Source: Armatimonadota bacterium
GTDB taxonomy: Bacteria > Armatimonadota > UBA5829 > DSUL01
Assembly (NCBI GenBank): GCA_052033935.1
Contig: JBPOJE010000073.1
Span: 2,159 to 66,158 of the forward strand
Length of the DNA stretch: 64,000 nucleotides
Reading direction: 5' to 3'
Shown here: positions 3,686 through 36,916 of the stretch, piece by piece
How positions within the stretch are numbered: position 1 is the stretch's first letter
How the letters are laid out: the number at the start of each line of letters is the position of its first letter
Program-made: the position numbers and the translations under genes
Notes under the pieces: generated by a model
Told to the model about the DNA's origin: nothing
The model's input: the letters and a program-made list of their open reading frames with translations, nothing else
Databases searched by the model: none

Positions 3686-3929
3686 TGCGGCAGCTTCTCA
3701 AGTGCTGTTCGTTTTGTGAATAATCTATATTGTGCTTGGAATTCTAAGTAGAAAATGGTATGATAACACGCTCTCAACCCGGAAAGCGGCTTTTCAGCGG
3801 CAATGCCGGCGCCGCACTCACGGGCGGCAGGATATTCCTATGACAACAGCCGTAGTTCTCTCGAACGGTAGGAGGCGTGTCGCCAGGGCTTGCGTCCCCA
3901 GACCGTCATCTGAAAGGTGCACGATCGCT

Positions 3930-7922: not shown

Positions 7923-10900
7923 ATGTCACGCCTGCCGTTCATTGCTACAGTCATTCTTGCGCTATCCGCCGCTGCGGCGCTGGCTGCTTCGCAGCCGCCC
8001 GTCGCGGGGACAATCAGCCCGGCCTCGGGAGATCTTGAGGCCGGAGCGGTTTACACGTTCACGGCCACCTTCGAAGACCCCGACGGCTATGCGGATATCG
8101 CGGACTGCCGCGTTCTGCTGAACACCGCCATCTCCGGCGCGAACGGCATTTTCGTCTTCTACAATGCTGTGAGCAACAAGCTCTACCTGCGCAACGACAA
8201 CAACACGGCGTGGCTGGGCGGGTATGCGCCCGGGTCGGCTGGCACGATAGACAACTCACAGTGCGCCGTCCACTGCTCCGGAAGCAGTGTGAGCGGATCG
8301 GGCAACAGGCTGACTGTGAACCTCTGCATTCTCCTTAAGGGCAGCCTCAGCGGAATCACACTTTCCGAGTGGCTGTATGCGGGAGACAGGTCGAAGCTGG
8401 GCGACGGCTGGAATCAGGCGGGCTCGATTCGCGTGGAGGCGTCGCCCGCTCCGCCCGTGACCGGAACCATCAGCCCCGCCGCCGGGCACCGCTTCGCGGG
8501 CGTCACGCACACGTTCACCGCGACGTTCGATGATCCGGAGGGATTCGAGGACATCCGCGACTGCCGCATCCTGCTCAATACCGCGATTTCCGGCGCGAAC
8601 GGCATATTCGTTTACTTTGACATCGCGAAGAACAGGGTCTATCTTCGCAGCGACAACAACACGGCGTGGCTGGGCGGATATGCTCCCGGCACCCCGAACA
8701 CAATCGAGAACGGGCGCTGCAGGGTCTATTGCGCCGGGACCAGCCTGCGCGGATCGGGAACCAGGCTGACCGTCACCCTGCAGGCTTACGTGAAGCCGGG
8801 AGTGGCCGGGAAGATTCTCAAAGAGTGGCTCTATGCGGGCGACAAGGCGGGCGCGGGCGACGGATGGAATCAGGCGGGCGCTCTCTACTTCGTTCCCCCC
8901 GCGCCGATGAACACCAGCGTCAGCCCGTCCAGCGGGCGGGTGTCGGCGCCGGGGTGGACGACCATCACCACGGCGCAGTACGACCCCAACGGGTTCGCTG
9001 ACATCAGAAGCTCCTACCTGCTCATCAACAGCAACTTCACGGGGCTCGGAGCGGTTTACGTGTGGTACGACGCGGTGGAGGACCTGCTCTATCTGCGCAA
9101 CGATGCCAACACGGGCTGGCTGGGCGGGTTCGCGCCTGGTTCGGAGAACATCATCTCGAACGGCCGCGCCGATCTGGACTGCGCCGCCACAACGGTTAAG
9201 GGCAGCGCCCAGACGCTGACGGTGGGCTGGCGCGTCAACATACGGCCGCCGCAGCCTGAGTGGGAGTGCGGGGCCTGGATGTATGCGGCCGACACGGCCG
9301 GGCTAAACTCAGGCTTCGAGAAGAAAGGTGACATCGTCTTCGACCAGGCACCCACGAATGCATCGCTCGAGCCGGCGTCGGGCGGCGCACTCTCGGTGGG
9401 GCAAACGTCTGTCCTGAGCGCAAAGTACACAGACCCGAGCGGCGCAGCCGACCTTCGCGGGGCGTACCTCGTGCTCAACACTACGCTGTCAAGCTTCCGC
9501 GGCGTTTCGCTCTGGTACGACGCCGGCGCGGACAGGCTGTGGCTGCGCAACGACCTGAACACGGCGTGGCTGGGCGGCATAGCGCCCGGAACCTCTGGCG
9601 TCATCGAGAACGGCTACTGCAAGATTGACTGCGCCGGAACGGCCGTCGAGCGCTCGGGCACGGATCTGGTGGTGAACTGGAAGATCGAGCCGAAGGCCTC
9701 GCTCAGGGGGAAAGCGCTCGGATCGTGGATGTACTGCGTTGACGCCGCCGGGCTGTCGGATGGCTGGGACCAGATGACAACCTACACCATCGGGAGCTAT
9801 CTCAATGTATCGCTCACGCCGTCATCCGGCGAAGTCCCCGCGCTGCAGCCGTTGTCGCTGACCACCGAATGCCTGGCACCTAACGGCGCGGCCGCGACGA
9901 GCACCTATCTGCTTCTGAACACGGCGGTCAACGCGGCGAACGGGGTGTATCTGTATTATGATGGGCCGGGCAACCGGCTCTATCTTCGCAACGACACCGG
10001 CTCGGCCTGGCTCGGCGGCTTCGCGCCGGGCAGCGCCAACACCATCGCCAACAGCCTGGTGACGGTGAACTGCGCGGGCACCACGGTTCAATCAGCCGAG
10101 GGGCGGATGCGGGTCGCCTGGTCGGTCGAGTTCAAGGCGTCGGACCGGCAGTTCACAGCCTGGATGTACACAGCCGACACCGCCAGGTTCACCGACGGCT
10201 GGGATACGATGGGCGTTCTGCAGGTCGTGAACCCAGACGGCATGGTTTACATACCGGCGGGTCCGGCCCTGATCGGCAGCGTTGGGGACGAGCCGTACGC
10301 CGAGAGCGACGAGCTTCCCCGGCACGAGGTATATCTGGCGGCATACTGGATAGGGCGCACCGAGGTGACACGCGCGCAGTACCGGGCGTTCATGGACTCG
10401 GGCGGATACCACAACCCCGCGTACTGGTCGGGCGAGGGCTGGACCTGGAAGATGGCCAACGACCGCACCGAGCCCGACTACTGGGCCGCGCAGCAGGACT
10501 GGGGCGGCTCCTCGTTCACGCAGACAGAGGCTCATCCGGTGGTCGGCGTTACGTACTACGAGGCCGAGGCTTACTGCGCCTGGGCGGGCGGGTATCTCCC
10601 CACAGAAGCGCAGTGGGAGAAGGCCGCGCGCTGGACGGGCAGCACGGCGAACGCGTACCCGTGGGGCGATGTGTGGGATCCGGAGAAGTGCAACAACTTC
10701 CACGACCGGAACCTGGCCGGGGGCGGGTATCAGGGCTATCAGACGGCGGCGGTGGGCAGCTACCCTGCCGGGGCAAGCCCGTACGGATGCCACGACATGG
10801 CCGGGAATGCGTGGGAATGGTGTCAGGACTGGTACGTTTCGTATCCGGGCAGCAGCGCTCCGTTTGACTTCACCGGTGCCTACCGCGTGGTGCGCGGCGG

Positions 10901-11000
10901 CGGGTGGGACTACGGACTGGACGGCGCGCGCTCGGCGAACCGGGCCTACTACGCCCCCGTCAACCGCTGGCACGACTGCGGATTCCGCCTGGCCAGGTAG
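7923..11000 (+). CDS. secreted protein with five tandem ~150-aa repeats and a C-terminal FGE-sulfatase (SUMF1/DUF323) fold domain
   Basis: ORF 7836..11000. Probable start ATG 7923 (MSRLPFIATVILALSAAAALAAS signal, AAAGG RBS). The C-terminus reads YLAAYWIGRTEVTRAQYRAFMDSGGY...GCHDMAGNAWEWCQDWY...YRVVRGGGWDY...WHDCGFRLAR, typical of the FGE-sulfatase fold. The canonical catalytic Cys pair of true FGEs is not evident. Confidence 0.75.
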   Translation: MSRLPFIATVILALSAAAALAASQPPVAGTISPASGDLEAGAVYTFTATFEDPDGYADIADCRVLLNTAISGANGIFVFYNAVSNKLYLRNDNNTAWLGGYAPGSAGTIDNSQCAVHCSGSSVSGSGNRLTVNLCILLKGSLSGITLSEWLYAGDRSKLGDGWNQAGSIRVEASPAPPVTGTISPAAGHRFAGVTHTFTATFDDPEGFEDIRDCRILLNTAISGANGIFVYFDIAKNRVYLRSDNNTAWLGGYAPGTPNTIENGRCRVYCAGTSLRGSGTRLTVTLQAYVKPGVAGKILKEWLYAGDKAGAGDGWNQAGALYFVPPAPMNTSVSPSSGRVSAPGWTTITTAQYDPNGFADIRSSYLLINSNFTGLGAVYVWYDAVEDLLYLRNDANTGWLGGFAPGSENIISNGRADLDCAATTVKGSAQTLTVGWRVNIRPPQPEWECGAWMYAADTAGLNSGFEKKGDIVFDQAPTNASLEPASGGALSVGQTSVLSAKYTDPSGAADLRGAYLVLNTTLSSFRGVSLWYDAGADRLWLRNDLNTAWLGGIAPGTSGVIENGYCKIDCAGTAVERSGTDLVVNWKIEPKASLRGKALGSWMYCVDAAGLSDGWDQMTTYTIGSYLNVSLTPSSGEVPALQPLSLTTECLAPNGAAATSTYLLLNTAVNAANGVYLYYDGPGNRLYLRNDTGSAWLGGFAPGSANTIANSLVTVNCAGTTVQSAEGRMRVAWSVEFKASDRQFTAWMYTADTARFTDGWDTMGVLQVVNPDGMVYIPAGPALIGSVGDEPYAESDELPRHEVYLAAYWIGRTEVTRAQYRAFMDSGGYHNPAYWSGEGWTWKMANDRTEPDYWAAQQDWGGSSFTQTEAHPVVGVTYYEAEAYCAWAGGYLPTEAQWEKAARWTGSTANAYPWGDVWDPEKCNNFHDRNLAGGGYQGYQTAAVGSYPAGASPYGCHDMAGNAWEWCQDWYVSYPGSSAPFDFTGAYRVVRGGGWDYGLDGARSANRAYYAPVNRWHDCGFRLAR
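7992..10233 (+). repeat. five in-frame tandem repeats (~440-456 bp each) inside the FGE-domain gene
   Basis: Protein repeats share TISPASG...YTFTATF(E/D)DP(D/E)G(F/Y)(A/E)DI(R/A)DCR(V/I)LLNTAISGANGIFV...LYLRNDNNTAWLGGYAPG...C.G...GSG.RLTV...EWLYAGD..G.GDGWNQAG. Copies 1 and 2 are also highly similar at the nucleotide level. Unit starts are near 7992, 8449, 8894, 9341 and 9796. Confidence 0.8.
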
Positions 11001-24661: not shown

Positions 24662-25753
24662 TTAGGCCGTCTGCTCCGTCCTGCGCCTGTTTCTGGCGTT
24701 TTCGATGATGCGCTCGATATCCGCGTCGTCAACGGCGCGCTCGAAGCTGCGGAAGCCCGACAGCCGGAACCCTTGCGACTCCGCCATCGCCGTTATCTCG
24801 TCCACCTGCTCCACCGACACGTCCTTGCCGAGCGTGAAGCTCTCGTAGCGCTCCGCCAGCGCGAGCGCCATCGTCTCGGACATGCAGGCGTACGCCTTGC
24901 CGGGCGGAAAACCGAAGTCGAAGTGGAAGTCCACTTCGCCGGGTGGGTCCACGATGCCGCCCTCGATCACCAGCACGTCGTCGCGCTCCCTCGCCACGCG
25001 GACAGACACATCCCTCGGCCGCGCGACGTCGCAGACGACCGCCCCAGGCTTCAGGTGGCCGGGCAGCACGATTGCGTCCACAGCGCTCGACACCGTCACG
25101 ACGATGTCCGCCGAAGGCAGGCTGTCCGCCACCGATGTGCTGATGCTCACGTGGGCCGCCGAGCCTTCGCGTATCTCGGCCGCGAGCGCTTCCAGCTTGT
25201 CCGGGCTGCGTCCCACAAGCACGATCTCGGGATAGTCCCGCGCTAGCAGCTTCGCGCAGGTCTTTCCGATGGAGCCGGTCGCCCCCACAATCGCCACGCG
25301 CGCTTCGTGCTGGGGAACCTCGAGCATCTCCGCGGCGCGCCTGGCGCCCTGAACCGCGGCCGCCACAGTGTAGCTGTTGCCGGTCGTAATGGCGATGTTC
25401 ACCCTCTTGCTGAGCGTCACGCCGCCGTCGCCCACCACCGACGTGAACGCGCCGAGCCCCATAATCTTCGCGCCCCGCTCCTCGGCCAGCCGCGCCGCAA
25501 TCACAAGCCGCTTCCACACCTCCTCCTCGGGCAGCGAAAGGAGCTGGCGTGGCGTCAGCGGACAGGCGATGAACCAGCCCTCGGCCTCGGTCCCGCCGGC
25601 CGCGCGAACGCCTGTGATGTGGCTTACGACAAACGGATCCTTGTGCTTGATGGCCCATTCGACCAAGCGGTCGGGCAGGTACTTCGCGACCGGGTACTGC
25701 CGCGCGACGTCCTTCGCGTTCAGGGGGTGTATGATGAAGGCAAATCGTTCCAT
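24662..25753 (-). CDS. acyl-ACP reductase (AAR)-like NAD(P)-binding protein (shikimate-DH-like N-domain + Rossmann domain)
   Basis: MERFAFIIHPLNAKDV...GLGAFTSVV...ITTGNSYTVAAAV...VAIVGATGSIGKTCAKLLA. These parallel the cyanobacterial acyl-ACP reductase segments as I recall them (FGLIGHL..., ALGGFTSI, FTTGNTHTAYV, VAVVGATGDIGSAV). The assignment rests on recalled family similarity only. Confidence 0.55.
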   Translation of the reverse strand: MERFAFIIHPLNAKDVARQYPVAKYLPDRLVEWAIKHKDPFVVSHITGVRAAGGTEAEGWFIACPLTPRQLLSLPEEEVWKRLVIAARLAEERGAKIMGLGAFTSVVGDGGVTLSKRVNIAITTGNSYTVAAAVQGARRAAEMLEVPQHEARVAIVGATGSIGKTCAKLLARDYPEIVLVGRSPDKLEALAAEIREGSAAHVSISTSVADSLPSADIVVTVSSAVDAIVLPGHLKPGAVVCDVARPRDVSVRVARERDDVLVIEGGIVDPPGEVDFHFDFGFPPGKAYACMSETMALALAERYESFTLGKDVSVEQVDEITAMAESQGFRLSGFRSFERAVDDADIERIIENARNRRRTEQTA

Positions 25754-25775
25754 AGGGTAAGCGGGTGGCGTCTTT

Positions 25776-26579
25776 CTACTCTGACGCCTCCGGGGCCTTT
25801 GCAGGTTCGGCAGGCTTGCGCTTGTGCGCCAGGAACCAGTCGTACAGCTCCTGATTGTTGTACGCCTCGGTCCACGAGTCGTGCCCGGCCTCGGGATACA
25901 CGGTGAACTTCACCTCTGGCGCGCCCGCATTCTTCAGCGCCGCCACCATGTCCTCGGAACGCTTGATCGGCACGGTGGTGTCCTTCGCGCCGTGGAACAC
26001 CCAGACGGGCATATCCTTGATAGCCCCAACGGTGAACGCGTTCCCGCCGCCGCAGATGGGCGCGATGGCGGCGAAGCGCTGAGGATCCGCGATGGCCAGA
26101 GCCCATGTGCCGAATCCGCCCATGCTCAGCCCGGTCAAATAGACGCGGTCCTTATCAATCCGGTAGTTGTCCGCAAGCTCATCGAGCAGCGCAAAGAGCG
26201 TGTCCAGCTTGCTGTCCCACCAGACTCCTTCCGGGCACTGCGGAGCGGCGACTATAAACGGGAAGTCACCCTTTGCCTCCGCCACCTTGATGGGGCCGTG
26301 GATCTTCACCTTCTGCACGTCGTTTCCACGCTCGCCCGCTCCGTGCAGAAAGAGAATCAGCGGCCAGCGCTTGTCGCTGTCCGCAGTGTAGTCTTTCGGC
26401 AGAAACAGGAGGTAGTTCGCGCCCACCGACAGCGTAATCCTGCGCTCGAAGCTCTTTGCGCTGACACCGGTGGCGCCGGAGTCCTGCGCCCGGGAAGGCA
26501 GCGCCGCCAGAACGAGAACCAGAATCATCAATGCGAGAACCATGCCCGCGCCCTTTCCATATCCGTGCATCATATTCAT
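25776..26579 (-). CDS. secreted alpha/beta-hydrolase (phospholipase/carboxylesterase-like, GLSMGG nucleophile elbow)
   Basis: Start ATG 26579 (MNMMHGYGKGAGMVLALMILVLVLAALPSRA signal) overlaps the upstream stop by 4 nt (ATGA). LILFLHGAGERG, YLTGLSMGGFGTW, HGAKDTTVP are present. The track ORF 25776..27182 is an artefactual extension. Confidence 0.8.
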   Translation of the reverse strand: MNMMHGYGKGAGMVLALMILVLVLAALPSRAQDSGATGVSAKSFERRITLSVGANYLLFLPKDYTADSDKRWPLILFLHGAGERGNDVQKVKIHGPIKVAEAKGDFPFIVAAPQCPEGVWWDSKLDTLFALLDELADNYRIDKDRVYLTGLSMGGFGTWALAIADPQRFAAIAPICGGGNAFTVGAIKDMPVWVFHGAKDTTVPIKRSEDMVAALKNAGAPEVKFTVYPEAGHDSWTEAYNNQELYDWFLAHKRKPAEPAKAPEASE

Positions 26580-27484
26580 AAATCGGTAACCTCCGGTTTC
26601 CAGCGGAGTTCTTTCAGCATGCGGCTGAAGTCGTCCGGCGTCAAGCCACGCGCGTCTTTGCCTGAGGCCGCCACGATCGCCGCTTCCATTACGTTTGTGC
26701 CCGGTGAGCGCCCCCCGAAGGCGGGGGTTGTCGTGATGAGCCGCTTCGCGCCGCGGCTTGCAATCTCGTCCCGGAACTCCGCCGTGGTCGTGTTGGTGAT
26801 AATCGTCTTGCCCGCGAGCGACCCTTCGCCCTCCGGCATGCGCCGGCGGATCATGTGCCGGTCCCCCGCGATGACATCCGCCCACGAGTATGCCCACCCG
26901 AACCGCGGGCGCGCCACATCCTGTTTCGCTCCTGTCGGATAGAGCCACCGGAACGGCAGCCTCACCGCCACCGGTAGGATGAGCGCGGCGAGCGGCCTGA
27001 CTAGGCGAAACGACCGGATCGGAATCGGCAGCCCTAGCGCAAACATCAGGTCGCCGTAGATGGCCGGGCCGCCGCAGGCGGCGATCTCCTCGGCCATCCC
27101 GAACCTGTCCACCGCACACACCATCAGCGTGTTCACCTCGCCGAAATGCACAATGCCGCGCGCGTTGAGATAGCGGACGCACTCGCGCTCCAGCGTGTTC
27201 TTAAGCCCGCTTCCGTCCACGACCGGCGTCTGCTTCACCAGAGCCGCGAGCTTGCTGATCTCGCGGAACGTATAGCGCCGCCCGTCTGCGTAAACGTACA
27301 TATCGGCACCGCCAAGCCCGATAGCATCCGCCTTGCCATCCAGCTCGCGGAGCTTTGCGGCGTAATCGGTGAGGCTGCCGTTCGTGCCGGCGCGGCTGAT
27401 CTCAATGTCCTGCCCTAGATAGCGGACCGTCGTCTGAAAGTCACCCTTCGCGCTTCCGAGACTTACGCTCACGACCTTCTTCAT
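26576..27484 (-). CDS. conserved hypothetical protein (family not confidently recognised)
   Basis: 302-aa ORF MKKVVSVSLGSAKGDFQTTVRYLGQDIEISRAGTNG...DAIGLGGADMYVYADGRRYTF. It is translationally coupled (4-nt overlap) to the downstream esterase. Confidence 0.5.
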   Translation of the reverse strand: MKKVVSVSLGSAKGDFQTTVRYLGQDIEISRAGTNGSLTDYAAKLRELDGKADAIGLGGADMYVYADGRRYTFREISKLAALVKQTPVVDGSGLKNTLERECVRYLNARGIVHFGEVNTLMVCAVDRFGMAEEIAACGGPAIYGDLMFALGLPIPIRSFRLVRPLAALILPVAVRLPFRWLYPTGAKQDVARPRFGWAYSWADVIAGDRHMIRRRMPEGEGSLAGKTIITNTTTAEFRDEIASRGAKRLITTTPAFGGRSPGTNVMEAAIVAASGKDARGLTPDDFSRMLKELRWKPEVTDL

Positions 27485-27652
27485 GTCAGCAGGTATTATA
27501 CAGGTTTACCGCCGCGAAAGGGAGTGGTGTGCGATCCGCCTCACGCTCCATCGCCGTTGGGGTTGAGCTGTTCTTGCGCGGCAGGGGCGACCACATGCCG
27601 CCATGAATCCACGTCGTGGCTTATCTCCTGAGTCCGCCTCTCTCAGCCGGTC

Positions 27653-28720
27653 TTAGCGCGCGAACCGGAACCCGAACGATTTGGTCCAGTAGTTCTCCGG
27701 GCGGTTGTTGCTGCGGGCCGAGACGCGGGCACAGTAGTCCGTGCCGTTCCAGCCGCAGCCCCGGATGGCGCGATATGTGCCGGTGGCCGGCCCTTGCGGG
27801 TCCTGGGTGGGCGAGACACTGTAGTAGCTGCTGCTGAACCAGTCCAGGCACCATTCGGCGACGTTGCCGGCCATGTCATGGCATCCGTACGGGCTCACTC
27901 CGGAGGGGTAGCACCCCACCGGCGCCGTCTGATAACCCGGGTACAGCGTGTCGTTGGTGTTGTTTGACCTCTGGGCATCATACACACTGCCCCAGGGATA
28001 GATGTTCGGGTAGCTGCCGGTCCAGCGGCCGGCCTTCTCCCACTGCGCTTCCGTGGGCAACCGTCCGCCTGCCCACGCGCAGTATGCCTCGGCCTCGTAG
28101 TAGCTTACGGCAACCACAGGATGAGCGTCAGTCTGTGTAAAGGGCCCCGTGCCCCAGTCCTGCTGCTCGGCCCAGGAATCGGGCTCGGTGCGGTCGCGGC
28201 CTTCCTTCCACGTCCAGCCCGCGCTCGACCAGTACGCGGGATTGCTGTAGCCGCCCGCCTGCATAAAGGCGCGGTAGTCGCCCCGAGTCACTTCGTACTT
28301 GCCGATCCAGTAGCCGGAGAGGGTCACCTGGTGCTGCGGCAGTTCGCTTGTCGCCGAGTATGGCTCGCTGCCATTGTTGCCCATCAGAAAAGCCCCGGCT
28401 GGGACATACACCATCTCAGTCCGGCAGGGACCGGCGTAGAGAGTTGACTTGCAGGGCGCCTGTGATGCCGCCAGAACGCCCTCGGCATAGTCGCCCTCGA
28501 CGATCAGAAAATCGCCCGGCTTGCCGGTGATTCCCGTAACCGTTATCTCCCCCCTGCCGTCCGACAGCACCAGCGGCGACTCAGAGGTCACACACCCGTA
28601 CACGACGACCGGGTTGGGAGGGTTCGGGGCGTACCCCAGATCGGAGATGCGGACGGTGTACGCCGCCCATCCAGGTGCGGACGATGCGAGCAGCACAAGA
28701 GCGCAGAACAGCTTTTTCAT
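27653..28720 (-). CDS. secreted FGE-sulfatase-fold (SUMF1/DUF323) domain protein, paralog of the C-terminus of 7923..11000
   Basis: Probable start MKKLFCALVLLASSAPGWA (28720). YWIGKYEVTRGDYRAFMQAGGYSNPAYWSSAGWTWK...GCHDMAGNVAEWCLDW...FGFRFAR is near-identical in motif order to the 7923 gene C-terminus. Confidence 0.75.
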   Translation of the reverse strand: MKKLFCALVLLASSAPGWAAYTVRISDLGYAPNPPNPVVVYGCVTSESPLVLSDGRGEITVTGITGKPGDFLIVEGDYAEGVLAASQAPCKSTLYAGPCRTEMVYVPAGAFLMGNNGSEPYSATSELPQHQVTLSGYWIGKYEVTRGDYRAFMQAGGYSNPAYWSSAGWTWKEGRDRTEPDSWAEQQDWGTGPFTQTDAHPVVAVSYYEAEAYCAWAGGRLPTEAQWEKAGRWTGSYPNIYPWGSVYDAQRSNNTNDTLYPGYQTAPVGCYPSGVSPYGCHDMAGNVAEWCLDWFSSSYYSVSPTQDPQGPATGTYRAIRGCGWNGTDYCARVSARSNNRPENYWTKSFGFRFAR

Positions 28721-28780
28721 CTGAGTCCTCATGCCTATGGTGCGACAGGAGGGCCGGGCTGTCAAGGCCGAAAGCGCGGT

Positions 28781-29611
28781 TTAGGCTTTCAGGCCGGTGA
28801 GGGTGATCCCTTCGATAAACTGCTTCTGGGCGAGGAGAAACAGAACAAGAATCGGCAGCGCGGCCATCACCGCACCCGCCATGAGCACCGGCCAGTTCGC
28901 GTCGCCATAGAACCCCTGCAGCGACTGCAGCCCGATGGGGATGGTCTTCATCGTGGGGCGGTTGATGACGATAAGCGGCCAGATAAAGCTGTTCCAGCTT
29001 CCGAGAAACGCGATCAGCCCGAACGCCGTCAGCGCCGGACGTGAGAGCGGCAGCATGATCCGCAGATAGATAGTCCAGTGACTCGCGCCATCAATATGCG
29101 CGGCCTCCTCCAGCTCCTTCGGGATGGTCATGAAGAACTGTCTTAGCAGGAAGCAGCCATAGGCGCTCGCGACGAAGGGCACGATGAGCGCCGCGAACGA
29201 GTCAATCCAGCGCAACTTCACCATCAGAATGAACAGCGGAATCATCGTCACCTGCGTGGGCACCATCATGGTGGCGAGATAGGCGATAAAGAGCGCGTCG
29301 CGGCCCCGGAAGTTGAGGCGCGAGAACGCGTACGCGGCGAACGTGGATGTGACGAGCTGCGCCAGGGTCACGACGACCGCCACGATGAGGCTGTTGAGAA
29401 AGAAGTTGGCGAAGGGCACGGTCTTCCACGCCTGCAGGTAGTTGTTCCAGTGAGCGCCGCTCGGCAGAAGCTGCTCGAGCGGCAGGAAGAACTCCGTCGT
29501 GCTGCGCAGGCTCCCGATGATCATCCACACAAACGGCACGATCATGCTCAGGCTGAGAAGCCCGAGGACGATGTAAGTGCACAGGTTGCCGAAGCGCTCG
29601 CGGTTCTTCAT
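28781..29611 (-). CDS. carbohydrate ABC transporter permease (MalG-like)
   Basis: MKNRERFGNLCTYIVLGLLSLSMIVPFVWMII...EAAHIDGASHWTIYLRIMLP contains the EAA loop. Start 29611 shares 1 nt with the upstream stop. The track ORF is extended artefactually to 29878. Confidence 0.8.
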   Translation of the reverse strand: MKNRERFGNLCTYIVLGLLSLSMIVPFVWMIIGSLRSTTEFFLPLEQLLPSGAHWNNYLQAWKTVPFANFFLNSLIVAVVVTLAQLVTSTFAAYAFSRLNFRGRDALFIAYLATMMVPTQVTMIPLFILMVKLRWIDSFAALIVPFVASAYGCFLLRQFFMTIPKELEEAAHIDGASHWTIYLRIMLPLSRPALTAFGLIAFLGSWNSFIWPLIVINRPTMKTIPIGLQSLQGFYGDANWPVLMAGAVMAALPILVLFLLAQKQFIEGITLTGLKA

Positions 29612-30495
29612 CAGCTTCCGTAGTGAATCCATCTGCGCGTGACGGAGAGCTGCAGCAGCGTCACGGAAAGGATGATCAGAAACAGCACAAAGGCAAGCGC
29701 GGACGCGTAGCCCATGTGGAACATCGTGAACGCCTCGGTGTACACGTGGTACACATAGACGCTTGTCTGCGGCGTCGGCTTGCCGCCGGTCATCATGTAG
29801 ATCTGCGTGAACACCTGAAACCCGCTGATGACCGACATCGTGAAAATGAACAGCGTTGTCGGCGACAGCAGCGGCCAAGTGACATGCCGGAACATCTGCC
29901 AGGGGTTCGCCCCGTCAATGCGCGCCGCCTCGTAATAGCTCGCGCCGATGCCCTGCAACCCCGCAAGGTAGAGAATGGCGTTGTACCCCAGCCCCGCCCA
30001 TACGCTCATAATGATGATCGCGGGCATGGCCCAGTACGGGTCGGCGAGCCATCCGGGCGGGTTGGCGATGACCGTGGAGAGGAGCTTGTTGATGAGGCCC
30101 GACTCCGGGTTGTACAAGGAGCGCCACACTATGGACAGTGCGACGATGCTGGTGACCGCCGGCAGGAAGAAGATCACACGGAACGCAGCCACGCCCATAA
30201 GCTTGCGGTTCATCAGCAGGGCGATGCCGAGTGAGACGGCCATGGCGAGCGGCACTGTGGCGGCGGTGAAATAGAGTGTGTTCACAAGCACCTGCCGGAA
30301 GGCCTCGCCGTGCGTCAGGTCTCTCCAGATGGCGGCATAATTGGCGAGCCCGACGAAGCGCGGTGGGGTCAGGATGTCCCATTCCAGGAGGCTGATGCCC
30401 AGCGCTCCGAAGATGGGCAGCACCGCGAACACCTGCAGCCCCACAAAGCTCGGGCTCAGGAAACCGATGGCTGCAAGAGTGTCGCGGCGGCTCAC
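29611..30495 (-). CDS. carbohydrate ABC transporter permease (MalF-like)
   Basis: 294 aa. YEAARIDGANPWQMFRHVTWPLL is the EAA motif, with 6 TM helices. Confidence 0.85.
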   Translation of the reverse strand: MSRRDTLAAIGFLSPSFVGLQVFAVLPIFGALGISLLEWDILTPPRFVGLANYAAIWRDLTHGEAFRQVLVNTLYFTAATVPLAMAVSLGIALLMNRKLMGVAAFRVIFFLPAVTSIVALSIVWRSLYNPESGLINKLLSTVIANPPGWLADPYWAMPAIIIMSVWAGLGYNAILYLAGLQGIGASYYEAARIDGANPWQMFRHVTWPLLSPTTLFIFTMSVISGFQVFTQIYMMTGGKPTPQTSVYVYHVYTEAFTMFHMGYASALAFVLFLIILSVTLLQLSVTRRWIHYGS

Positions 30496-31841
30496 TGCAC
30501 GTTCCCGTCCTTTCCGGCGCTTAGGATGGCGTTCACGCGGTGGGTGAGCGCACGCATGCTCTCGGCCACATCTTTGCGCGCTGTGAAAATCTGGGTCAGC
30601 TCCGATCTGGCAAGCTCTTCAAAGGTGCCAGTGTTGGGGTCCACCTCGAGCGGACGGGCATAGCGCGCGGCCCTCAGAAACTCCCAGTCGTTTTCGGGCG
30701 GCGTATTGGGGTCGAGGAACACCGGCGACTCGGCGACGGACACGAACGAAGGCATGTCGCGCCCGGTGGCGGCCTGGTGCTTCTGACCCTCCTTGCCGCA
30801 AAGCCACTGCATCAGCTTCCACGCTTCTTCCAGATTTGGGCCATCCTTGCGCAGGACGTAGCAATTCGCGAAGAGCACTGTGGCGGTCTCTTTCTTCATC
30901 GGGACCGGCCCCACGTCCCAGTTGAGCGGGCGTCCGTCGGCGTATTTCGCGTCGCGGAAGCTCTGGCATCCCCAGCGCCCCTGAATGAACATCGCCTGCC
31001 GCCCGGCGCGGAACATCTCGCCGCCGCCGCCCAGGTCCTGTGCCTGTTCGGGGGACGGGAAGACTTTGTGCTTGTACTGGCAATCGGCAAGAAACTGGAC
31101 GGCCTCAATCGCGGCCGGCTCGTCGAGCAGGCAGCAGCTCATGTCGGGCGTGAACAGCCGCCCTCCGTTCTGCCAAATCCAGAACGCTATTCCGTCGGAC
31201 TGCAGCGGCGCGTCGCAGGCGAACTGATCGGGTTTGCCGTCGCCGTTTCGGTCGGCGGCGATCTTCTTGCTCGCGTCAAGAAAATCAGCCCACGTCCAGC
31301 CTTCGCGCGGGTACGGCACGCACGCCTGGTCGAACATGTCCTTGTTGTAGTACAGCACGAACGTCGTCCACCCGCGCGGGAGTCCGTAGAAGCGGCCCTG
31401 GTATTTCAGGGCGGGGAGGAGCTCGGCGAACATCTCGTCCACGGGAAAGCCGTCGCGTTCGATCAGCTCGTCGAGAGGCTGCAGCGTGTTGCGGGCAGCG
31501 AATGTCGGAAGCTGGTTGTAAGCGAGCTGCATGATGTCGGGCGCGACGCCCGCGGCAAACTGAATCTTGATACGCTGGTAATACTGCGACCCCGGTACCT
31601 GCTGGATTTCGATGTCCACGTTCGGGTGAGCAGCCTTGTAGCGGTCAAGCAGGCGGGTAAGAGACGCCAGCCCTTCCGGGCCCTCCCAGCAGGCGAGCAC
31701 CAGACGCACACGTCCGGGATCCTTCTTCGCTTTTCCGGTGCATCCGCAAACGCACAAGCAGGCGGCAAGAACAATCAGCAGGGCGACAGCGCAGCGCGCC
31801 AGGCCGGATTCCCAGATTGCAGCAGACCCGAGAGCGCGCAC
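30492..31841 (-). CDS. ABC transporter extracellular solute-binding lipoprotein (family 1, sugar)
   Basis: Probable GTG start 31841 (VRALGSAAIWESGLARCAVALLIVLAACLCVCGCTGKA lipobox), which avoids overlap with the 5'-nucleotidase stop at 31846. SBP_bac_1-like. Confidence 0.7.
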   Translation of the reverse strand: MRALGSAAIWESGLARCAVALLIVLAACLCVCGCTGKAKKDPGRVRLVLACWEGPEGLASLTRLLDRYKAAHPNVDIEIQQVPGSQYYQRIKIQFAAGVAPDIMQLAYNQLPTFAARNTLQPLDELIERDGFPVDEMFAELLPALKYQGRFYGLPRGWTTFVLYYNKDMFDQACVPYPREGWTWADFLDASKKIAADRNGDGKPDQFACDAPLQSDGIAFWIWQNGGRLFTPDMSCCLLDEPAAIEAVQFLADCQYKHKVFPSPEQAQDLGGGGEMFRAGRQAMFIQGRWGCQSFRDAKYADGRPLNWDVGPVPMKKETATVLFANCYVLRKDGPNLEEAWKLMQWLCGKEGQKHQAATGRDMPSFVSVAESPVFLDPNTPPENDWEFLRAARYARPLEVDPNTGTFEELARSELTQIFTARKDVAESMRALTHRVNAILSAGKDGNVQ

Positions 31842-31845
31842 TGTC

Positions 31846-33474
31846 TTACGGCTGCTCCACCCGCCTGACTCTGTCAAGGGCGGGAGGCGAGACGGTCTTC
31901 CGCTCCTTGATATAGGAGATAACCGCCTCGCGGGTGGTGTCCCAGGTCTCCCATGTGACCTCGACACCCGGGGCTGCTTCCATCATCTCCATCATCACGT
32001 ACGCCTGTGTGGTGACGGTGTAGAGCTTCTCCGGGCCGGCCGTCTGCCCGCCGATGGTCAGACGCTTCACGACGGGGGTATCGCCGCTTATCTCCCACTC
32101 GGTCGAAGCGCCCGATATGGCGGTCGTAATCTGCTTCTTGCGGCCGGCGCGGGCGTTCAGGCCTCCAATGATCTCATCGCCGGTCATCTTCGCGGTCACA
32201 AGGTGCTGGCGCGTGTATCCTCCGATGAGCCCGAATGCCTGCCCTGCGGTGACCGGGCCGGCGGCAAGCTCACCCTTCACCGAGTTCGCGTCCACGACGC
32301 CCAAATCCGACCCGCCCGCGGCGCGGACGGCATCGGCGACGAGACTGGCGGCGGCGCTCTCCTGCCCTGCCGGCGCCGGCAGGATGGCGGCCGAGGCGCT
32401 ACCGATCACCTCCTGCGCCAGCGCGGCGGCCCGGTCGCGATAGGGCTGATACGCTTTCAGCACATCCGGGTCTTCCGGCACGTCGTCTCCGATGGCGATG
32501 AGCGGCCCTTCCGGATACGAAGCGTCGAGCGGCACGTTCCGCAGCCTGTTCCAGAGCTTGTGCCTGCCGTTGACCGATGTGATCTCAGCAGCGCCGCTGT
32601 CCTTGCGGACGATGAAGTCAATGCGCCCTAGGTTGCGGGCCCCGTAGCCCGTCTGCGTGACGAGCGTATCGCCGATCCAAGTCCACTCCCGAATGGCCGT
32701 ATGCGTGTGACCGCCGACGATAAAATCTATGCCCGGCACCTCGGCGGCCATCTGTTTGTCCGGGTTCACCCCCATATGCGACAGGGCGATCACGACGTCC
32801 GCCTGCTTTCGCAGTTCGGGCACGATGCGTTTGGCGGTCACGATGGGATCGTCAATGATGATGTCGCGGATGCTGGGCGGCCAGTGCAGCGATATGGTGT
32901 CCAGCGATGCCAGCCCGAAAATCGCAATGCGCACCCCCTGGATTTCCTTGATGATGTGCGGCTGCAGCCTGTCCCACTGCCCGCCGGAAGCTGCGCGGAT
33001 GTTTGCCGCTAGGAACGGGAAGGTGGCGTGGCGCATCGCGTCCCGCGTGACCTGCAGCCCGAAGTCGAACTCGTGGTTGCCCGCGGTCATAACGTCATAG
33101 CCCACGGCGTTCATTGCGCTGATGGTGGCGGCTCCGCCGGAGATGTAGTCCTCCGGCTGCCCGTGGATCACGTCGCCACCTTCGAGCAGAAGCACGTTGG
33201 GCATCTCCGCGCGAATTTGCCTGACAACGGTGGCCGCGCGCGCGAGCCCGCCCGGGCCTTCACCCGGCACGATACTGCCGTGCAGGTCGTTCGTGTGCAG
33301 AATGGTGATGAGGACGTAAGCCGGGTCGGCACCAGCCACACCCGACAGCGACGCAAACGCCACGCTGGCCGCCAGCCACGCCGTGCGCGAATGCAGCTTC
33401 AAACCAGGCCTGACCAGGCGGCGGAACAGCCATGCAACGCCGCCGATCGCGGTAAGCCACTTCAGGTTAAGCAA
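31846..33474 (-). CDS. bifunctional metallophosphatase / 5'-nucleotidase (UshA-like)
   Basis: ILHTNDLHGSI, LLLEGGDVIHG, GNHEFDFG are calcineurin-like metallophosphoesterase motifs. A C-terminal 5'-nucleotidase domain follows, and there is an N-terminal signal/TM. Confidence 0.85.
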   Translation of the reverse strand: MLNLKWLTAIGGVAWLFRRLVRPGLKLHSRTAWLAASVAFASLSGVAGADPAYVLITILHTNDLHGSIVPGEGPGGLARAATVVRQIRAEMPNVLLLEGGDVIHGQPEDYISGGAATISAMNAVGYDVMTAGNHEFDFGLQVTRDAMRHATFPFLAANIRAASGGQWDRLQPHIIKEIQGVRIAIFGLASLDTISLHWPPSIRDIIIDDPIVTAKRIVPELRKQADVVIALSHMGVNPDKQMAAEVPGIDFIVGGHTHTAIREWTWIGDTLVTQTGYGARNLGRIDFIVRKDSGAAEITSVNGRHKLWNRLRNVPLDASYPEGPLIAIGDDVPEDPDVLKAYQPYRDRAAALAQEVIGSASAAILPAPAGQESAAASLVADAVRAAGGSDLGVVDANSVKGELAAGPVTAGQAFGLIGGYTRQHLVTAKMTGDEIIGGLNARAGRKKQITTAISGASTEWEISGDTPVVKRLTIGGQTAGPEKLYTVTTQAYVMMEMMEAAPGVEVTWETWDTTREAVISYIKERKTVSPPALDRVRRVEQP

Positions 33475-33486
33475 ACGAAGGCCTTT

Positions 33487-34200
33487 CTAGTATTCGCCCA
33501 TAACGTAGCGGTCGTTGGCGTGACACTCGGGGAAGTCCCAGTGGGCGTACTTCAGTTGACCGCGCGAGTCCTTCCATTCCGGGCTGTAGGGCTTGACGTT
33601 CGTTACCACGTGCCCGTCCATCATCACCATCAGCATCACCCAGCCCGAAGTGGGGCTGTTGACACCCGAGCGCTCGTAGTGATGCCTGCTGTGCCGGTCA
33701 CTCAGGAGATAGAACTGGGCAGGCCGCGTGCACTGGTCGAACTTCCGCGGCCGGTACACCCTGCCCGGCGCGTAGGCGTACCCCAGACACTCGTTGAAGC
33801 GGTAGTCTATCTCGTTGCGCACGAAGTTGTTCCAGCAGGAGTCGCAAGGGTCGGGACACTGCCACATGGTGTCGCCTTTGAGATAGGAGTTCAGGTCGCG
33901 GTACGGGCCGCTCGTGTTTCTGAGGAAGGAGTCCTGCGCGCTGATGTTGGGGTTACCGTTGCCATACACATTGCAGACCCGTGGGCCGTAGCCGTTGTGG
34001 TCATCCACATACATCCGCACAGCCGTGGCGATCTGCTTGAGATTGTTGATGCATTGCGTTGTCTTGGCCTTACGCTTAGCACGCGCGAAAACAGGGAACA
34101 GGATTGCTCCCAGAATGGCGATGATCGCAATGACGACAAGCAGTTCGATCAGCGTGAAGCCCACACGGTTGGACCTGTCCGAGAGCCGTCTCATAACCAT
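33487..34200 (-). CDS. prepilin-type N-terminal cleavage/methylation domain protein (DUF1559 / H-X9-DG family)
   Basis: [32 protein letters not shown] is the class III signal. C-terminal ...MDGHVV is the H-X9-DG tail. Start is probably ATG 34200. Confidence 0.8.
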
Positions 34201-34304
34201 TGTAATGTCTCCCGAATAATGATTCGCGAAAGCACCCTTACGAAGCATTTTGCGCCTTCCGAAGAGCGCCTGTCAACCAGCCCGCCGGAACTGGTACGCA
34301 GGTA

Positions 34305-36155
34305 CTAGTTGAGCGTGACAATGTCGGCCGCGGAGCGGACTCTCAGCCGTCTCTGTACCTTGCCCGCGATGGTGGCGGTGGAGATGATGCCCGTCACTTG
34401 CACAGGGCGGCCCACGGCCGGAGCGCTCCAGCCGGACAGGCCTGACACATCCACCCGCAGCCCTGTGTAGCCGTAGCCGTCAACGAGCGTGCTCCCGTCG
34501 TCAATGTACAGGTAAAAGCCGCTGATCGAGGCCTTCACCCTGCCCCACGTCCGCACAAGCAGTCCGATGTTGTTGAGTCCCACTCCCCCCTGCACGCCCG
34601 GAGTGTAAGTGCCGAGCGCCTCACCGCCCAGCCGCTCGTTCGACAGCCCGAGCGGCACGGGCAGACTTCCGGTTCCGGACACAGTAACGCTCGACGCCGA
34701 AATCTCCCGTTCGCCGTTGAGCATGCTGAGCGTGCCGACGACGTTTACCCTGTCGCCAACCGCAACAATCGCGCCGCTGTTGACTTTGATTGCCGCCGAT
34801 CGGTCGTCTTCAGAAACGTAAAACGCGCCGGAAAACACGGATGTTACTGTCTTGCCGGACAGGACAACGGCCGTCCCGTTCGGCTCAAGGCGCGCATCGC
34901 CGATTCGCGGAGACGAACCATCGGGGCCGTAGTGAACGGCCACTGGCGGCGAGACCGACTTAAGGCGGTTGCTGGAGGCATCGGTGGCTCGCGCTATGAT
35001 CGTGTGGACGCCGATAGCTTGCCCGGCCGGATCCCAGGTGAAGCTGTATGGCGCGGCGGTATCTGTCCAGAGAAGCTGGCCGTCCACATAGAACTCGACA
35101 TTGTAAATGCCGCTCGCGTCCGATGCGTCCGCCGTCACCGTAACAGGCCCTGTGACGAGTGCTCCCGCAGCTGGAGCGGTGACCGAGACGGCCGGTGGGG
35201 TCAGGTCCACGGCGTGGATGTTGATGGTGGCATAGACGGCGCGGTGATCGCTGCCGAAGTGCGAGCTGCGGGTGGGGTTGAAGGCGAACCCTCCCGGCTG
35301 CTTGACGCCCGAGTCGCGGTCCCACCAGATATAGTCCAGCCGCTTGCCGAACAAGTCCATCATCGTCTGCCCGCTGAACGAGTTGTGTGTGTGCTGGCTG
35401 CTGGGGTCGGTGAATTCGATGTCTATCTCGTTCCAGGTGGACGTGCCTGTATCGGTGTTGAGATCGTTGGTGATAATGCGCGCGGTTCCGGGGAATCCCG
35501 ACATGCCGGGCGAGCCCGTCTGTCCGTTGACGATCCACTCCTTCAGCCGGATGGCTTCTTGGCGGCGTTCTTCCTCGGTCACTTCGTGTCCGTTGAGGAT
35601 CGCCCCGCCCCAGAGCAGCTTGCCCGTAAACAGCCCGAACGCTTCGTCCGTGCCGAGCTTCCGGAATAGCCTGCCGGCGTACTTGAGCACGTAGCCGTTG
35701 TCTATTGTCTCCAGCACCTTCTCGCCGAGATACCACTCGCTGAGCCGGTGCTCCACGAGACCCGTTCTCCAGAAGAAGCCGATGCCGCTTGTGTTGTTGA
35801 CGCCCTGCGGGGTGCGCGAGCTTGCCCAATCCGCCCCGGTGTACTGCTCCAAGAACTGCTCGACCTTCACGCGGTCGGTCTCGCTGAGGAGTTCCTGCAT
35901 CCCGATGACGGCGATGGGAGGATGTGTTGATCCCGAAGGGTTGATGCTGGCCACCCACTGCGCGAAACGCTTCGCGGTATCGTAGGTGACGGCGGAGGTG
36001 TCCTGCTCGGTGTAGCGCCCGCCGGAGTAGATGTTGCACTGGCAGACGGTGATGGTTCCGGCGCATGCAGGAATGAAAACCGTGAGCGCAAGAAAAGCAG
36101 CGCAAATCAACCAGTGATGAAGTTTGTGCATTGCGGCGAGCGAGACGACAGGCAA
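34305..36155 (-). CDS. secreted endonuclease/exonuclease/phosphatase (EEP) family hydrolase with Ig-like domain and recurrent C-terminal module
   Basis: Signal MHKLHHWLICAAFLALTVFIPACAG. RLDYIWWD...GSDHRAV is the EEP C-terminal catalytic motif. APYSFTWDPAG is Ig-like. The C-terminal FYLYIDDGS...GLRV...VQVTG module is shared with other secreted proteins. Confidence 0.65.
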   Translation of the reverse strand: MPVVSLAAMHKLHHWLICAAFLALTVFIPACAGTITVCQCNIYSGGRYTEQDTSAVTYDTAKRFAQWVASINPSGSTHPPIAVIGMQELLSETDRVKVEQFLEQYTGADWASSRTPQGVNNTSGIGFFWRTGLVEHRLSEWYLGEKVLETIDNGYVLKYAGRLFRKLGTDEAFGLFTGKLLWGGAILNGHEVTEEERRQEAIRLKEWIVNGQTGSPGMSGFPGTARIITNDLNTDTGTSTWNEIDIEFTDPSSQHTHNSFSGQTMMDLFGKRLDYIWWDRDSGVKQPGGFAFNPTRSSHFGSDHRAVYATINIHAVDLTPPAVSVTAPAAGALVTGPVTVTADASDASGIYNVEFYVDGQLLWTDTAAPYSFTWDPAGQAIGVHTIIARATDASSNRLKSVSPPVAVHYGPDGSSPRIGDARLEPNGTAVVLSGKTVTSVFSGAFYVSEDDRSAAIKVNSGAIVAVGDRVNVVGTLSMLNGEREISASSVTVSGTGSLPVPLGLSNERLGGEALGTYTPGVQGGVGLNNIGLLVRTWGRVKASISGFYLYIDDGSTLVDGYGYTGLRVDVSGLSGWSAPAVGRPVQVTGIISTATIAGKVQRRLRVRSAADIVTLN

Positions 36156-36205
36156 GACTGCCGCCCGCCGGGTGGCAGGGCGGCAGTCAGAAGCGAAGCA
36201 GGGGT

Positions 36206-36916
36206 TTACTTGCGGCGAAGCACACCGGAGAATCCGGCGAGGCCCATCGCCAGCGCAACCAGCGACGCAGGCTCGGGGACGACGTTGAGGTCGTCCGCGA
36301 TTGCGTAGTTGGCATACGAGGGAAGGTCGGTAAGGCTCAAGTAGCCCCTGTAGAAGTTGATCGTGGTCGGTTTAACGGCATTAGCGCTGTAGAGCGCCAC
36401 ATCCGTCGCGGCGGCAGTGCCGTCCACCCACAACGACCAGGTCTGGGCCGCCCAGTCGAGCACGGCCTTGAACTGATAGACCTGAGCGCCGTTGAAGCTG
36501 GACTGATAGACCCGCCACGCGCCTCCCGAGTAGTACTGGATGGCCCCACCGGTGAAGCCGAATGCCAGGCTGCGATCGGCAGCGCCTGCGTCCTGGAGAG
36601 AAACCCACCACTGTCCGGTGTTGTACATCGCCTTCGCCAGCTTGACCTCCACAGTCACGAGGTCGCCAACCTGGCCGATGGAATGCCTTGCGGCACGCCC
36701 GGCATTACCGGACACCATGTACGACTGCGCCCCGGCAATCACGTACGTCGGATCGTTGGTCACACGGTAGTTGGTGCTGGCCGGGTCAACGACCCAGTCG
36801 TTCTGGCCCGTCAGCCCGCCGGCAACATACTCCGGTGCCTCGAAGCCGGTGGCGAAGTTCGCGCTGGCCGGCAACGCAACTGCCAGAAACGCCATGAGCA
36901 CAAAGACTGTCCTCAT
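36206..36916 (-). CDS. PEP-CTERM sorting-domain secreted protein
   Basis: Signal peptide MRTVFVLMAFLAVALPASA. The C-terminus VPEPASLVALAMGLAGFSGVLRRK is a PEP-CTERM motif plus TM helix plus basic tail. Confidence 0.85.
   Translation of the reverse strand: MRTVFVLMAFLAVALPASANFATGFEAPEYVAGGLTGQNDWVVDPASTNYRVTNDPTYVIAGAQSYMVSGNAGRAARHSIGQVGDLVTVEVKLAKAMYNTGQWWVSLQDAGAADRSLAFGFTGGAIQYYSGGAWRVYQSSFNGAQVYQFKAVLDWAAQTWSLWVDGTAAATDVALYSANAVKPTTINFYRGYLSLTDLPSYANYAIADDLNVVPEPASLVALAMGLAGFSGVLRRK

Follow-up and report, generated by a model that had tools for sequence, protein, structure and literature searches.

We analysed a stretch of 64,000 nucleotides (hereafter the window) from contig JBPOJE010000073.1 of an Armatimonadota bacterium (assembly GCA_052033935.1), in which a gene for a secreted protein with the fold of the formylglycine-generating enzyme (FGE) stands at the end of a series of minus-strand genes, following the genes of a secreted 5'-nucleotidase and of a carbohydrate importer of the ATP-binding cassette (ABC) type. 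A second and larger FGE-fold gene is located on the plus strand of the same window. A first-pass annotation, made from the sequence, had considered the nucleotidase, importer and FGE-fold genes as possibly one transcription unit and had drawn attention to a pairing of the FGE fold with sugar or nucleotide uptake. In this article we focus on the FGE-fold gene at 27653-28720, on the class of proteins to which its product belongs and on its relationship to the neighboring importer genes; the paralogue is referred to by its start position, 7923.

The gene begins with an ATG at 28720 and its product carries an N-terminal signal peptide (MKKLFCALVLLASSAPGWA, followed by AY); the exact 355-aa protein is a called gene in public assemblies. 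Residues ~100-355 of the product (116-370 in the longer open reading frame, or ORF, that was scanned) match the Pfam FGE-sulfatase model (PF03781) at 7.9e-56. Among sequences of known structure in the PDB, the best match is EgtB (4x8b, 8.5e-35), and the matches include bacterial and human FGE as well as TvpA, the variable protein of a Treponema diversity-generating retroelement (DGR) (2y3c, 3.5e-15). The structure model computed with AlphaFold2 (AF2) from an alignment of 121 homologues has a pLDDT of 95.2 and consists of a signal helix, an all-beta N-terminal domain of ~80 residues and the FGE domain (an AF2 run on a 15-sequence alignment, with a pLDDT of 44.8, was discarded). When this model was compared with known structures using Foldseek, the top hits were EgtB and FGE structures, with E~1e-21 to 2q17 and 6muj. 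Judging by the model, the N-terminal beta domain is probably a spacer or an anchor. We infer that the protein is secreted and that it functions in ligand binding, and the 7923-11000 product would likewise be a secreted ligand-binding protein.

The alignment of the 121 homologues shows high conservation of the FGE core, and the entropy amounts to 3.1-3.7 bits at residues 325-331, 335, 337-340 and 342-349. Most residues at these variable positions are Y, N, D, G, S, T, A, C, F or L, and between them runs a near-invariant scaffold consisting of R320, G321, R332 (C333, A334), R336, P341 and G350-F351-R352. We refer to this part of the protein as the variable-region-like (VR-like) segment. In five paralogues the variable positions are encoded almost entirely by NNC codons, where N stands for any nucleotide (18/19, 19/20, 19/20, 19/20 and 19/21), compared to 29-41% of third-position C elsewhere in the same genes. 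Such NNC coding of the variable positions is the mark left when a DGR mutates the adenines of AAC-rich template repeats (TR), and the FGE-sulfatase/CLec1 class is the largest class of DGR targets (PMC5758913). Variation of this kind is also seen in the P0002 cluster, a 90% cluster of a paralogue that is 63% identical to the window protein, where 31 of the last 45 alignment columns are variable as opposed to 18 of the 325 columns elsewhere. Because the variation in this cluster is concentrated in the last 45 columns, some members of the family are hypervariable in nature today.

Homologues of the window protein also occur in recognizable DGRs. At the locus L023, a homologue with 60% identity in the FGE domain is part of a complete DGR consisting of the target, Avd, reverse transcriptase (RT) and a pair of TR and variable region (VR). 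The Avd protein scores 93.8 with the NCBIfam model DivGenRetAVD, above the 80 required, the RT matches RVT_1 and contains IGNLTSQ...YVDD, and the AAC-rich TR, which encodes YRVLRGGSWNNNDNNNRCAYRNNNNPNNYNNNNGFRLAR, shares 78% identity with the VR. The VR-like segment of the window proteins aligns position by position with the scaffold encoded by this TR, YRVLRGGSW-(7)-RCAYR-(4)-P-(7)-GFRLAR; the 7923 paralogue has exactly the same length and the 27653 copy is one residue longer. The assembled VR of this locus (L023 10560-10720) is frameshifted relative to the TR-encoded frame, which is probably an assembly artefact arising from heterogeneity of the VR within the population.

A second such locus (L009, JAXGLP010000001, 12412-14276) is found in the metagenome-assembled genome AnMBR.bin211, which is the genome nearest to that of the window (90% protein identity). 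It contains three FGE-type targets followed by bAvd and then by an RT whose homology ends after ~75 aa, while the targets and bAvd are intact; no TR was found in the 20-kb locus, and a gene for an IS110-family transposase lies ~0.5 kb downstream of the RT on the opposite strand. This locus is a decayed DGR. One of its targets is 67% identical to the window protein, the best non-orthologous match among the loci fetched. The tandem triplets of FGE-fold genes in L009 and L010, together with the presence of several paralogues per genome, bear out the earlier suggestion of a lineage-specific expansion of the fold. Small PDDEXK_3 (GxxExxY) genes adjoin FGE-type paralogues at L170 9730-11600 and L009 14626-15024, and a four-helix-bundle gene (23S_rRNA_IVP/Avd-like) adjoins another at L169 9318-9701, in each case without an RT in the vicinity; these genes could be additional remains of DGRs, or the association could be a recurring but unrelated one.

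The two copies in the window carry a weaker form of the codon signature. NNC codons are found at 14 of the 20 variable positions in the 27653 gene (against a background of 45%) and at 15 of 19 in the 7923 paralogue (against 42%), and the codons GAG, AAA, ACG and TCG are among those that deviate from NNC in the former. The VR-like segment of the 27653 gene is near-identical in all those members of the gene's 90% cluster, drawn from many samples, whose sequence covers it, with a single change from N to I. Between two lineages that are ~90% identical, 3 of 33 VR residues differ, which is about the rate for the whole protein. The VR-like segment of the 7923 paralogue is identical among the copies in relatives, and the difference between the window and these relatives is again close to the gene-wide rate. 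Taken together, the invariance, the weaker NNC enrichment and the deviant codons and motif indicate that the variable regions are no longer rewritten and are drifting, and they point to both window copies being frozen DGR-type variable proteins. Neither RT nor Avd was detected in the 64-kb window (using tblastn with the L023 RT and Avd, and a regular expression for the DGR RT motif), and searches of the window for a TR of either VR-like segment (repeat and short-word blastn searches) yielded matches at chance level only.

The linkage between the FGE-fold gene and the importer is confined to close relatives. In AnMBR.bin211 (locus L007) the gene order is PEP-CTERM protein, endonuclease/exonuclease/phosphatase-like (EEP-like) protein, DUF1559 pilin, nucleotidase, binding protein, permease 1, permease 2 and FGE, and the metagenome contigs L001, L002 and L087, also at the ~90% level, keep the permease-FGE end of this order. 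The spacer that precedes the FGE-fold gene is almost unchanged (59/60 identical) in L007, L087 and L001, and synteny with the closest relative stops ~110 nt past the FGE stop codon. A metagenome search with the binding protein added three orthologous loci of lower similarity (L088, L089 and L090), in which the binding protein is 65-73%, the permeases 70-79% and the nucleotidase 51-54% identical to those of the window. L088 and L090 also carry the PEP-CTERM, EEP-like and pilin genes (orthologues of the EEP-like/Big_7 protein are 56-58% identical), and the L089 sequence starts at the nucleotidase. No FGE homologue was found at these three loci (tblastn, E<=1e-8) in the sequence available 3' of permease 2, which amounts to ~8 kb in L088 and L090 and only ~1 kb in L089. 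Conversely, at about a dozen non-orthologous loci with full-length FGE homologues (46-67% identity), neither CUT1 nor nucleotidase genes lie within 10 kb; the neighborhoods of FGE homologues include a branched-chain amino-acid ABC system, riboflavin genes, peptidase S8/GH20, His-tRNA synthetase/SOD and tandem FGE arrays. At one locus from Sumerlaeota (L049) an FGE homologue is accompanied by CUT1 permeases at a distance of ~5 kb, which we took as a coincidence given that this homologue is 32% identical and no nucleotidase is present. The linkage of the FGE-fold gene to the operon is thus not conserved, because L088-L090 lack the gene and FGE homologues elsewhere lack such a transporter. As judged from these comparisons, the conserved unit comprises the nuclease-like protein, the pilin, the nucleotidase and the ABC transporter, and the FGE-fold gene appears to be a recent, lineage-specific neighbor. 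The proposed functional pairing of the FGE fold with sugar or nucleotide uptake is accordingly not supported, and the comparison of genomic context in relatives, which the first-pass annotation had named as a way to refute its proposal, finds the junction kept only at the ~90% level (L007, L001, L002, L087).

We therefore regard the 27653-28720 protein as probably a frozen lectin-fold binding protein of the DGR type that was recently placed beside a sugar-importer operon and is not a conserved component of that operon. Both this protein and the 7923 product would belong to an Armatimonadota expansion of FGE-sulfatase/CLec1 variable proteins, a class in which the RT introduces errors specifically at adenines while copying the template repeat, and this altered copy takes the place of the variable region. 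The diversifying machinery is missing from the gene's neighborhood in this lineage and is apparently inactive, so that the variable region would be frozen with a single fixed specificity, presumably as a result of loss of the DGR. The protein would be exported by means of its signal peptide, and the former variable residues in the C-terminal ~35 positions would form a fixed C-type-lectin binding face for an extracellular or envelope ligand. The gene could be transcribed as an extension of the ABC operon, through read-through, or from a promoter of its own within the spacer.

Several observations weigh against this interpretation. The NNC enrichment of the 27653 copy is modest, with three non-NNC residues (E, K and W) at its variable positions; its one extra VR codon is found in only 7 of the 121 homologues, and it has RVS in place of the RCA motif of the family. 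These deviations fit drift after freezing and also a lineage that was never targeted. No TR or RT was found for the gene, either in the window or at the relative's L009 locus, and the sequence examined from the genome of the window organism amounts to 64 kb; as a consequence, descent from a DGR target is suggested by patterns in the family and not demonstrated by this copy. The near-identical proteins of the P0002 cluster (members P0128-P0141) vary in the length of the VR as well as in its sequence, which means that a single TR is not the source of its variation and suggests several TRs, several paralogues or recombination. Finally, the spacer between permease 2 and the FGE-fold gene is strongly conserved and free of terminators, and co-expression with the transporter is possible.

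As an alternative, the protein could be a catalytic enzyme of the FGE, EgtB or PvdO type, which would either generate formylglycine in sulfatases or act as a sulfoxide synthase. That the protein strongly matches the FGE-sulfatase model of Pfam and the structures of EgtB and FGE would agree with such a role, as would the position of one paralogue (L170) two genes away from a sulfatase and the alignment of C330 with the second catalytic Cys of Streptomyces coelicolor FGE (2q17). The first catalytic Cys, however, aligns with G326, both Cys positions fall inside the hypervariable segment of the family (position 330 is Y, G, D, N, L or S in homologues, with Y24, G19 and D17 leading), and the 7923 paralogue has Cys at neither of them. 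FGE proper (SUMF1/FGE) was rejected because the Cu(I)-binding Cys pair (human C336/C341) is not conserved, even though the fold fits; neither a sulfatase homologue nor a CxPxR signature was found in the window. EgtB/OvoA/SenA sulfoxide synthases were rejected on the sub-threshold score and the missing three-His iron domain of the DinB type: the EgtB model matched only at its positions 170-413, and because the EgtB and SenA matches are limited to the C-terminal half of the models, the iron-binding domain is absent, its place at the N-terminus being taken by the ~80-aa beta domain. All NCBIfam equivalog scores are 3- to 7-fold under the cutoff (137.8 bits vs 360 for EgtB, 119 vs 420 for SenA, 84.9 vs 350 for GldK and 74.6 vs 500 for PvdO), and assignments of the PorK/GldK, GldJ, PvdO and CalU17 type were likewise rejected on sub-threshold scores. 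We consider a catalytic function very improbable. The framing of the first-pass annotation in terms of FGE, EgtB and DUF323 clades misses the FGE/C-type-lectin class of DGR-targeted variable proteins. A different alternative is that a DGR situated elsewhere in the genome still acts on the gene, which would then be an active remote target and continue to diversify. DGRs are documented to have remote targets at distances above 100 kb (PMC5758913), the family scaffold of the segment is intact and enriched in NNC, and the relative's genome has a DGR cassette with closely related targets. Against this stand the essential invariance of the segment across a cluster of many samples, the equal divergence of the VR and the rest of the protein between the ~90% lineages, the non-NNC codons and the one-codon insertion relative to the family consensus, and the fact that no RT other than a truncated one, without a TR, was seen in the relative, so that we find continuing diversification hard to credit.

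The remaining alternatives assign the protein a role in the importer operon. It could be a functional accessory encoded by the co-transcribed last gene of the nucleotidase/sugar-ABC operon, for example a substrate-capturing lectin or a periplasmic modifying enzyme. In favor of this possibility, the gene is on the same strand as the operon and has its own ribosome-binding site after a 60-nt spacer without a terminator-like site; the spacer is nearly unchanged in the ~90% relatives, in which the gene stays with the operon and synteny breaks shortly downstream; and glycan binding is plausible for a lectin fold. Co-directionality itself carries little information because ~11 consecutive genes (24662-36916) are all on the minus strand, and the TTGACA hexamer in the spacer makes an independent promoter possible. 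Moreover, the nucleotidase-ABC genes of L088, L089 and L090 do without an FGE homologue in the sequence searched, the dozen homologue loci mentioned above do without the operon, and with many FGE copies per genome and CUT1 transporters being common, occasional chance adjacency is to be expected. We judge such an accessory role unlikely. A related possibility combines it with the frozen state: a former DGR protein, fixed after loss of the retroelement, was captured as the terminal gene of the operon and now serves as the importer's dedicated lectin-like substrate-capture factor. If true, this capture would mean that a binding protein that was once hypervariable has been domesticated as part of a metabolic operon for nutrient scavenging (nuclease, nucleotidase and ABC transporter), but we hold it to be rather improbable. 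The frozen binding protein that only recently came to lie beside the importer remains our preferred interpretation.

The features of the cluster and of the paralogue are listed in Table 1. The gene content, the common minus strand, the tight junctions, the 60-nt spacer and the secreted FGE-fold protein of ~350 aa described in the first-pass annotation were all confirmed. The binding-protein gene starts with a GTG at 31841, 4 nt past the TAA stop codon of the nucleotidase gene (a gap previously given as 5 nt), permease 1 starts within the binding-protein gene with an overlap of 4 nt (GTGA) at its stop codon, and permeases 1 and 2 are joined by a TGATG overlap. The nucleotidase had been described as UshA-like; its domains are those of the UshA family, and because it scores 186 bits with the UshA model, compared to a cutoff of 600, its sequence places it as a member of the family and not as a UshA equivalog. 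The N-terminus of the binding protein resembles a lipoprotein signal (LAACLCVCGC), and its nearest relatives of known structure are Lmo0181 and the arabino-oligosaccharide binding protein AbnE. The cluster of nucleotidase, transporter and FGE-fold genes contains no gene for an ABC ATPase, and the CUT1 transporter presumably relies on a shared ATPase of the MsiK/MalK type encoded elsewhere. A consensus scan detected neither terminators nor promoters, nor sites resembling them, in any intergenic gap between the nucleotidase and FGE-fold genes, its sole promoter-like hit being upstream of the pilin gene. A single transcription unit is therefore possible, as had been proposed, and is consistent with the conserved spacer, but since the gaps have neither kind of site, the scan does not settle the operon structure.

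Table 1. Coordinates of the FGE-fold genes, the importer cluster and adjacent genes in the window
Feature	Position	Strand	Description
FGE-fold protein gene	27653..28720	-	355 aa; signal peptide, ~80-aa all-beta N-terminal domain and FGE-sulfatase/C-type-lectin-fold domain
VR-like segment of the FGE-fold gene	27665..27763	-	aa 320-352, RGCGWNGTDYCARVSARSNNRPENYWTKSFGFR; hypervariable family-wide, fixed in this lineage
Spacer between permease 2 and FGE-fold gene	28721..28780	-	60 nt; TTGACA hexamer, GAGGA ribosome-binding site, no terminator
CUT1 ABC permease 2 (UgpE/MalG-like)	28781..29611	-	BPD_transp_1 6.2e-21; UgpE model 156 bits, under cutoff
CUT1 ABC permease 1 (MalF/UgpA-like)	29611..30495	-	BPD_transp_1 3.8e-18
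Lipoprotein solute-binding protein, oligosaccharide type	30492..31841	-	SBP_bac_1 4.3e-39
Secreted 5'-nucleotidase/UshA-family phosphoesterase	31846..33474	-	Metallophos 1.5e-17 and 5_nucleotid_C 1e-12
Prepilin-type N-terminal methylation/DUF1559 protein	33487..34248	-	N_methyl 8.5e-8; in conserved upstream module
Secreted EEP-like/Big_7 protein	34305..36155	-	Big_7 5e-22; in conserved upstream module
PEP-CTERM-anchored protein	36206..36916	-	PEP-CTERM 7.5e-5; upstream of module
FGE-fold paralogue	7923..11000	+	1025 aa; FGE-sulfatase 3.9e-54; signal peptide, five ~150-aa repeats and C-terminal FGE/CLec domain

The second FGE-fold copy in the window, which the first-pass annotation had recognized as a paralogue, is 60% identical to the 27653 protein over 258 aa of its C-terminal domain (E=2e-98). 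At the DNA level the two copies are 71-80% identical, with the similarity fading over the last ~185 nt, and the VR-like segment of the paralogue is located at ~10893-10988. Its five tandem repeats of ~150 aa (7923-10200, with a period of 441-456 nt and the pattern ADIADCRVLLNTA...LYLRNDNNTAWLGG) have no Pfam match. Repeats of the same type fill a 1407-aa protein in the closest relative (L009 14969-19192), ~2 kb downstream of the decayed DGR. Directly upstream of the paralogue is a 1339-aa ORF (3732-7751) without a Pfam match. On the 3' side of the FGE-fold gene, a 168-nt gap (27484-27652) contains a perfect TATAAT ~12 nt before the ATG of the next ORF, which encodes 302 aa (26576-27484) and has no match in Pfam or NCBIfam; it is within this gap that synteny with the closest relative is lost.

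The module extending from the PEP-CTERM protein to the CUT1 transporter (28781-36916 in the window) is kept at 50-79% identity in L088 and L090, and from the nucleotidase onward in L089. The match of its 34305-36155 protein to Exo_endo_phos is weak (2.5e-4, with 21.3 bits below the Pfam cutoff of 24.5). In L090 the module is followed by a histidine phosphatase gene and a convergent PhoU-PstBACS phosphate-uptake operon, and these neighbors hint at a role of the module in scavenging phosphate or extracellular nucleic acid. This link to phosphate or nucleic-acid scavenging may be of greater interest than the link to the FGE fold.

The main consequence of our interpretation is the correction of a likely mis-annotation. 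Genes of this kind are routinely labelled "formylglycine-generating enzyme" or "EgtB", and those analysed here would encode non-catalytic binding proteins of the DGR-target class; the apparent odd pairing of an FGE with sugar and nucleotide uptake would be a recent accident of gene order. The locus would also provide an example of DGR decay, with a truncated RT in the closest relative and with regions that are hypervariable in sister paralogues being invariant here, and the frozen copies could be used to study the specificity that becomes fixed once such a system of diversification disappears. The interpretation calls for no new mechanism.

Comparison with known systems places the locus as follows. 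CUT1 operons that depend on a shared ATPase of the MsiK type have the same composition, in which the genes for a binding protein and two permeases overlap at their junctions and are not accompanied by an ATPase gene; such operons are not known to contain FGE/CLec proteins, and the present one differs in having an FGE/CLec neighbor, whereas the orthologous operons examined do not. With FGE (SUMF1; 2q17, 6muj, 1y1e) the window protein shares the overall fold, at ~30-34% identity over ~280 aligned positions, and the core motifs, including PTEAQWEKA and GFR. It differs in the loop of the Cys pair, which is three residues shorter in the window family, in the non-conserved Cys pair and in having no sulfatase substrates nearby. 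With EgtB, OvoA and SenA it shares the C-terminal FGE-like domain, the EgtB structure 4x8b being its best PDB sequence match, but it is secreted, does not have the N-terminal DinB-like iron-binding domain and reaches only 138 bits against the cutoff of 360. The window protein also resembles DGR variable proteins of the TvpA type, in which the FGE-sulfatase domain contains a CLec1 VR (category 'b' of Wu et al. 2018, PMC5758913). The window copy differs from these in having no adjacent RT, Avd or TR, in a VR-like segment that does not vary in populations and has in part moved away from the NNC repertoire, and in its location at the end of a nutrient-uptake operon rather than in a DGR cassette. 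In other respects they agree: both have the FGE-subclass lectin fold with a C-terminal variable segment, variable N-terminal add-on domains, the invariant R/G/P/GFR scaffold and, at the level of the family, NNC-coded variable positions; both have lost the FGE catalytic residues, TvpA being without FGE activity (PMC5758913); and homologues of the window protein reside in real DGR cassettes (L023 and L009).

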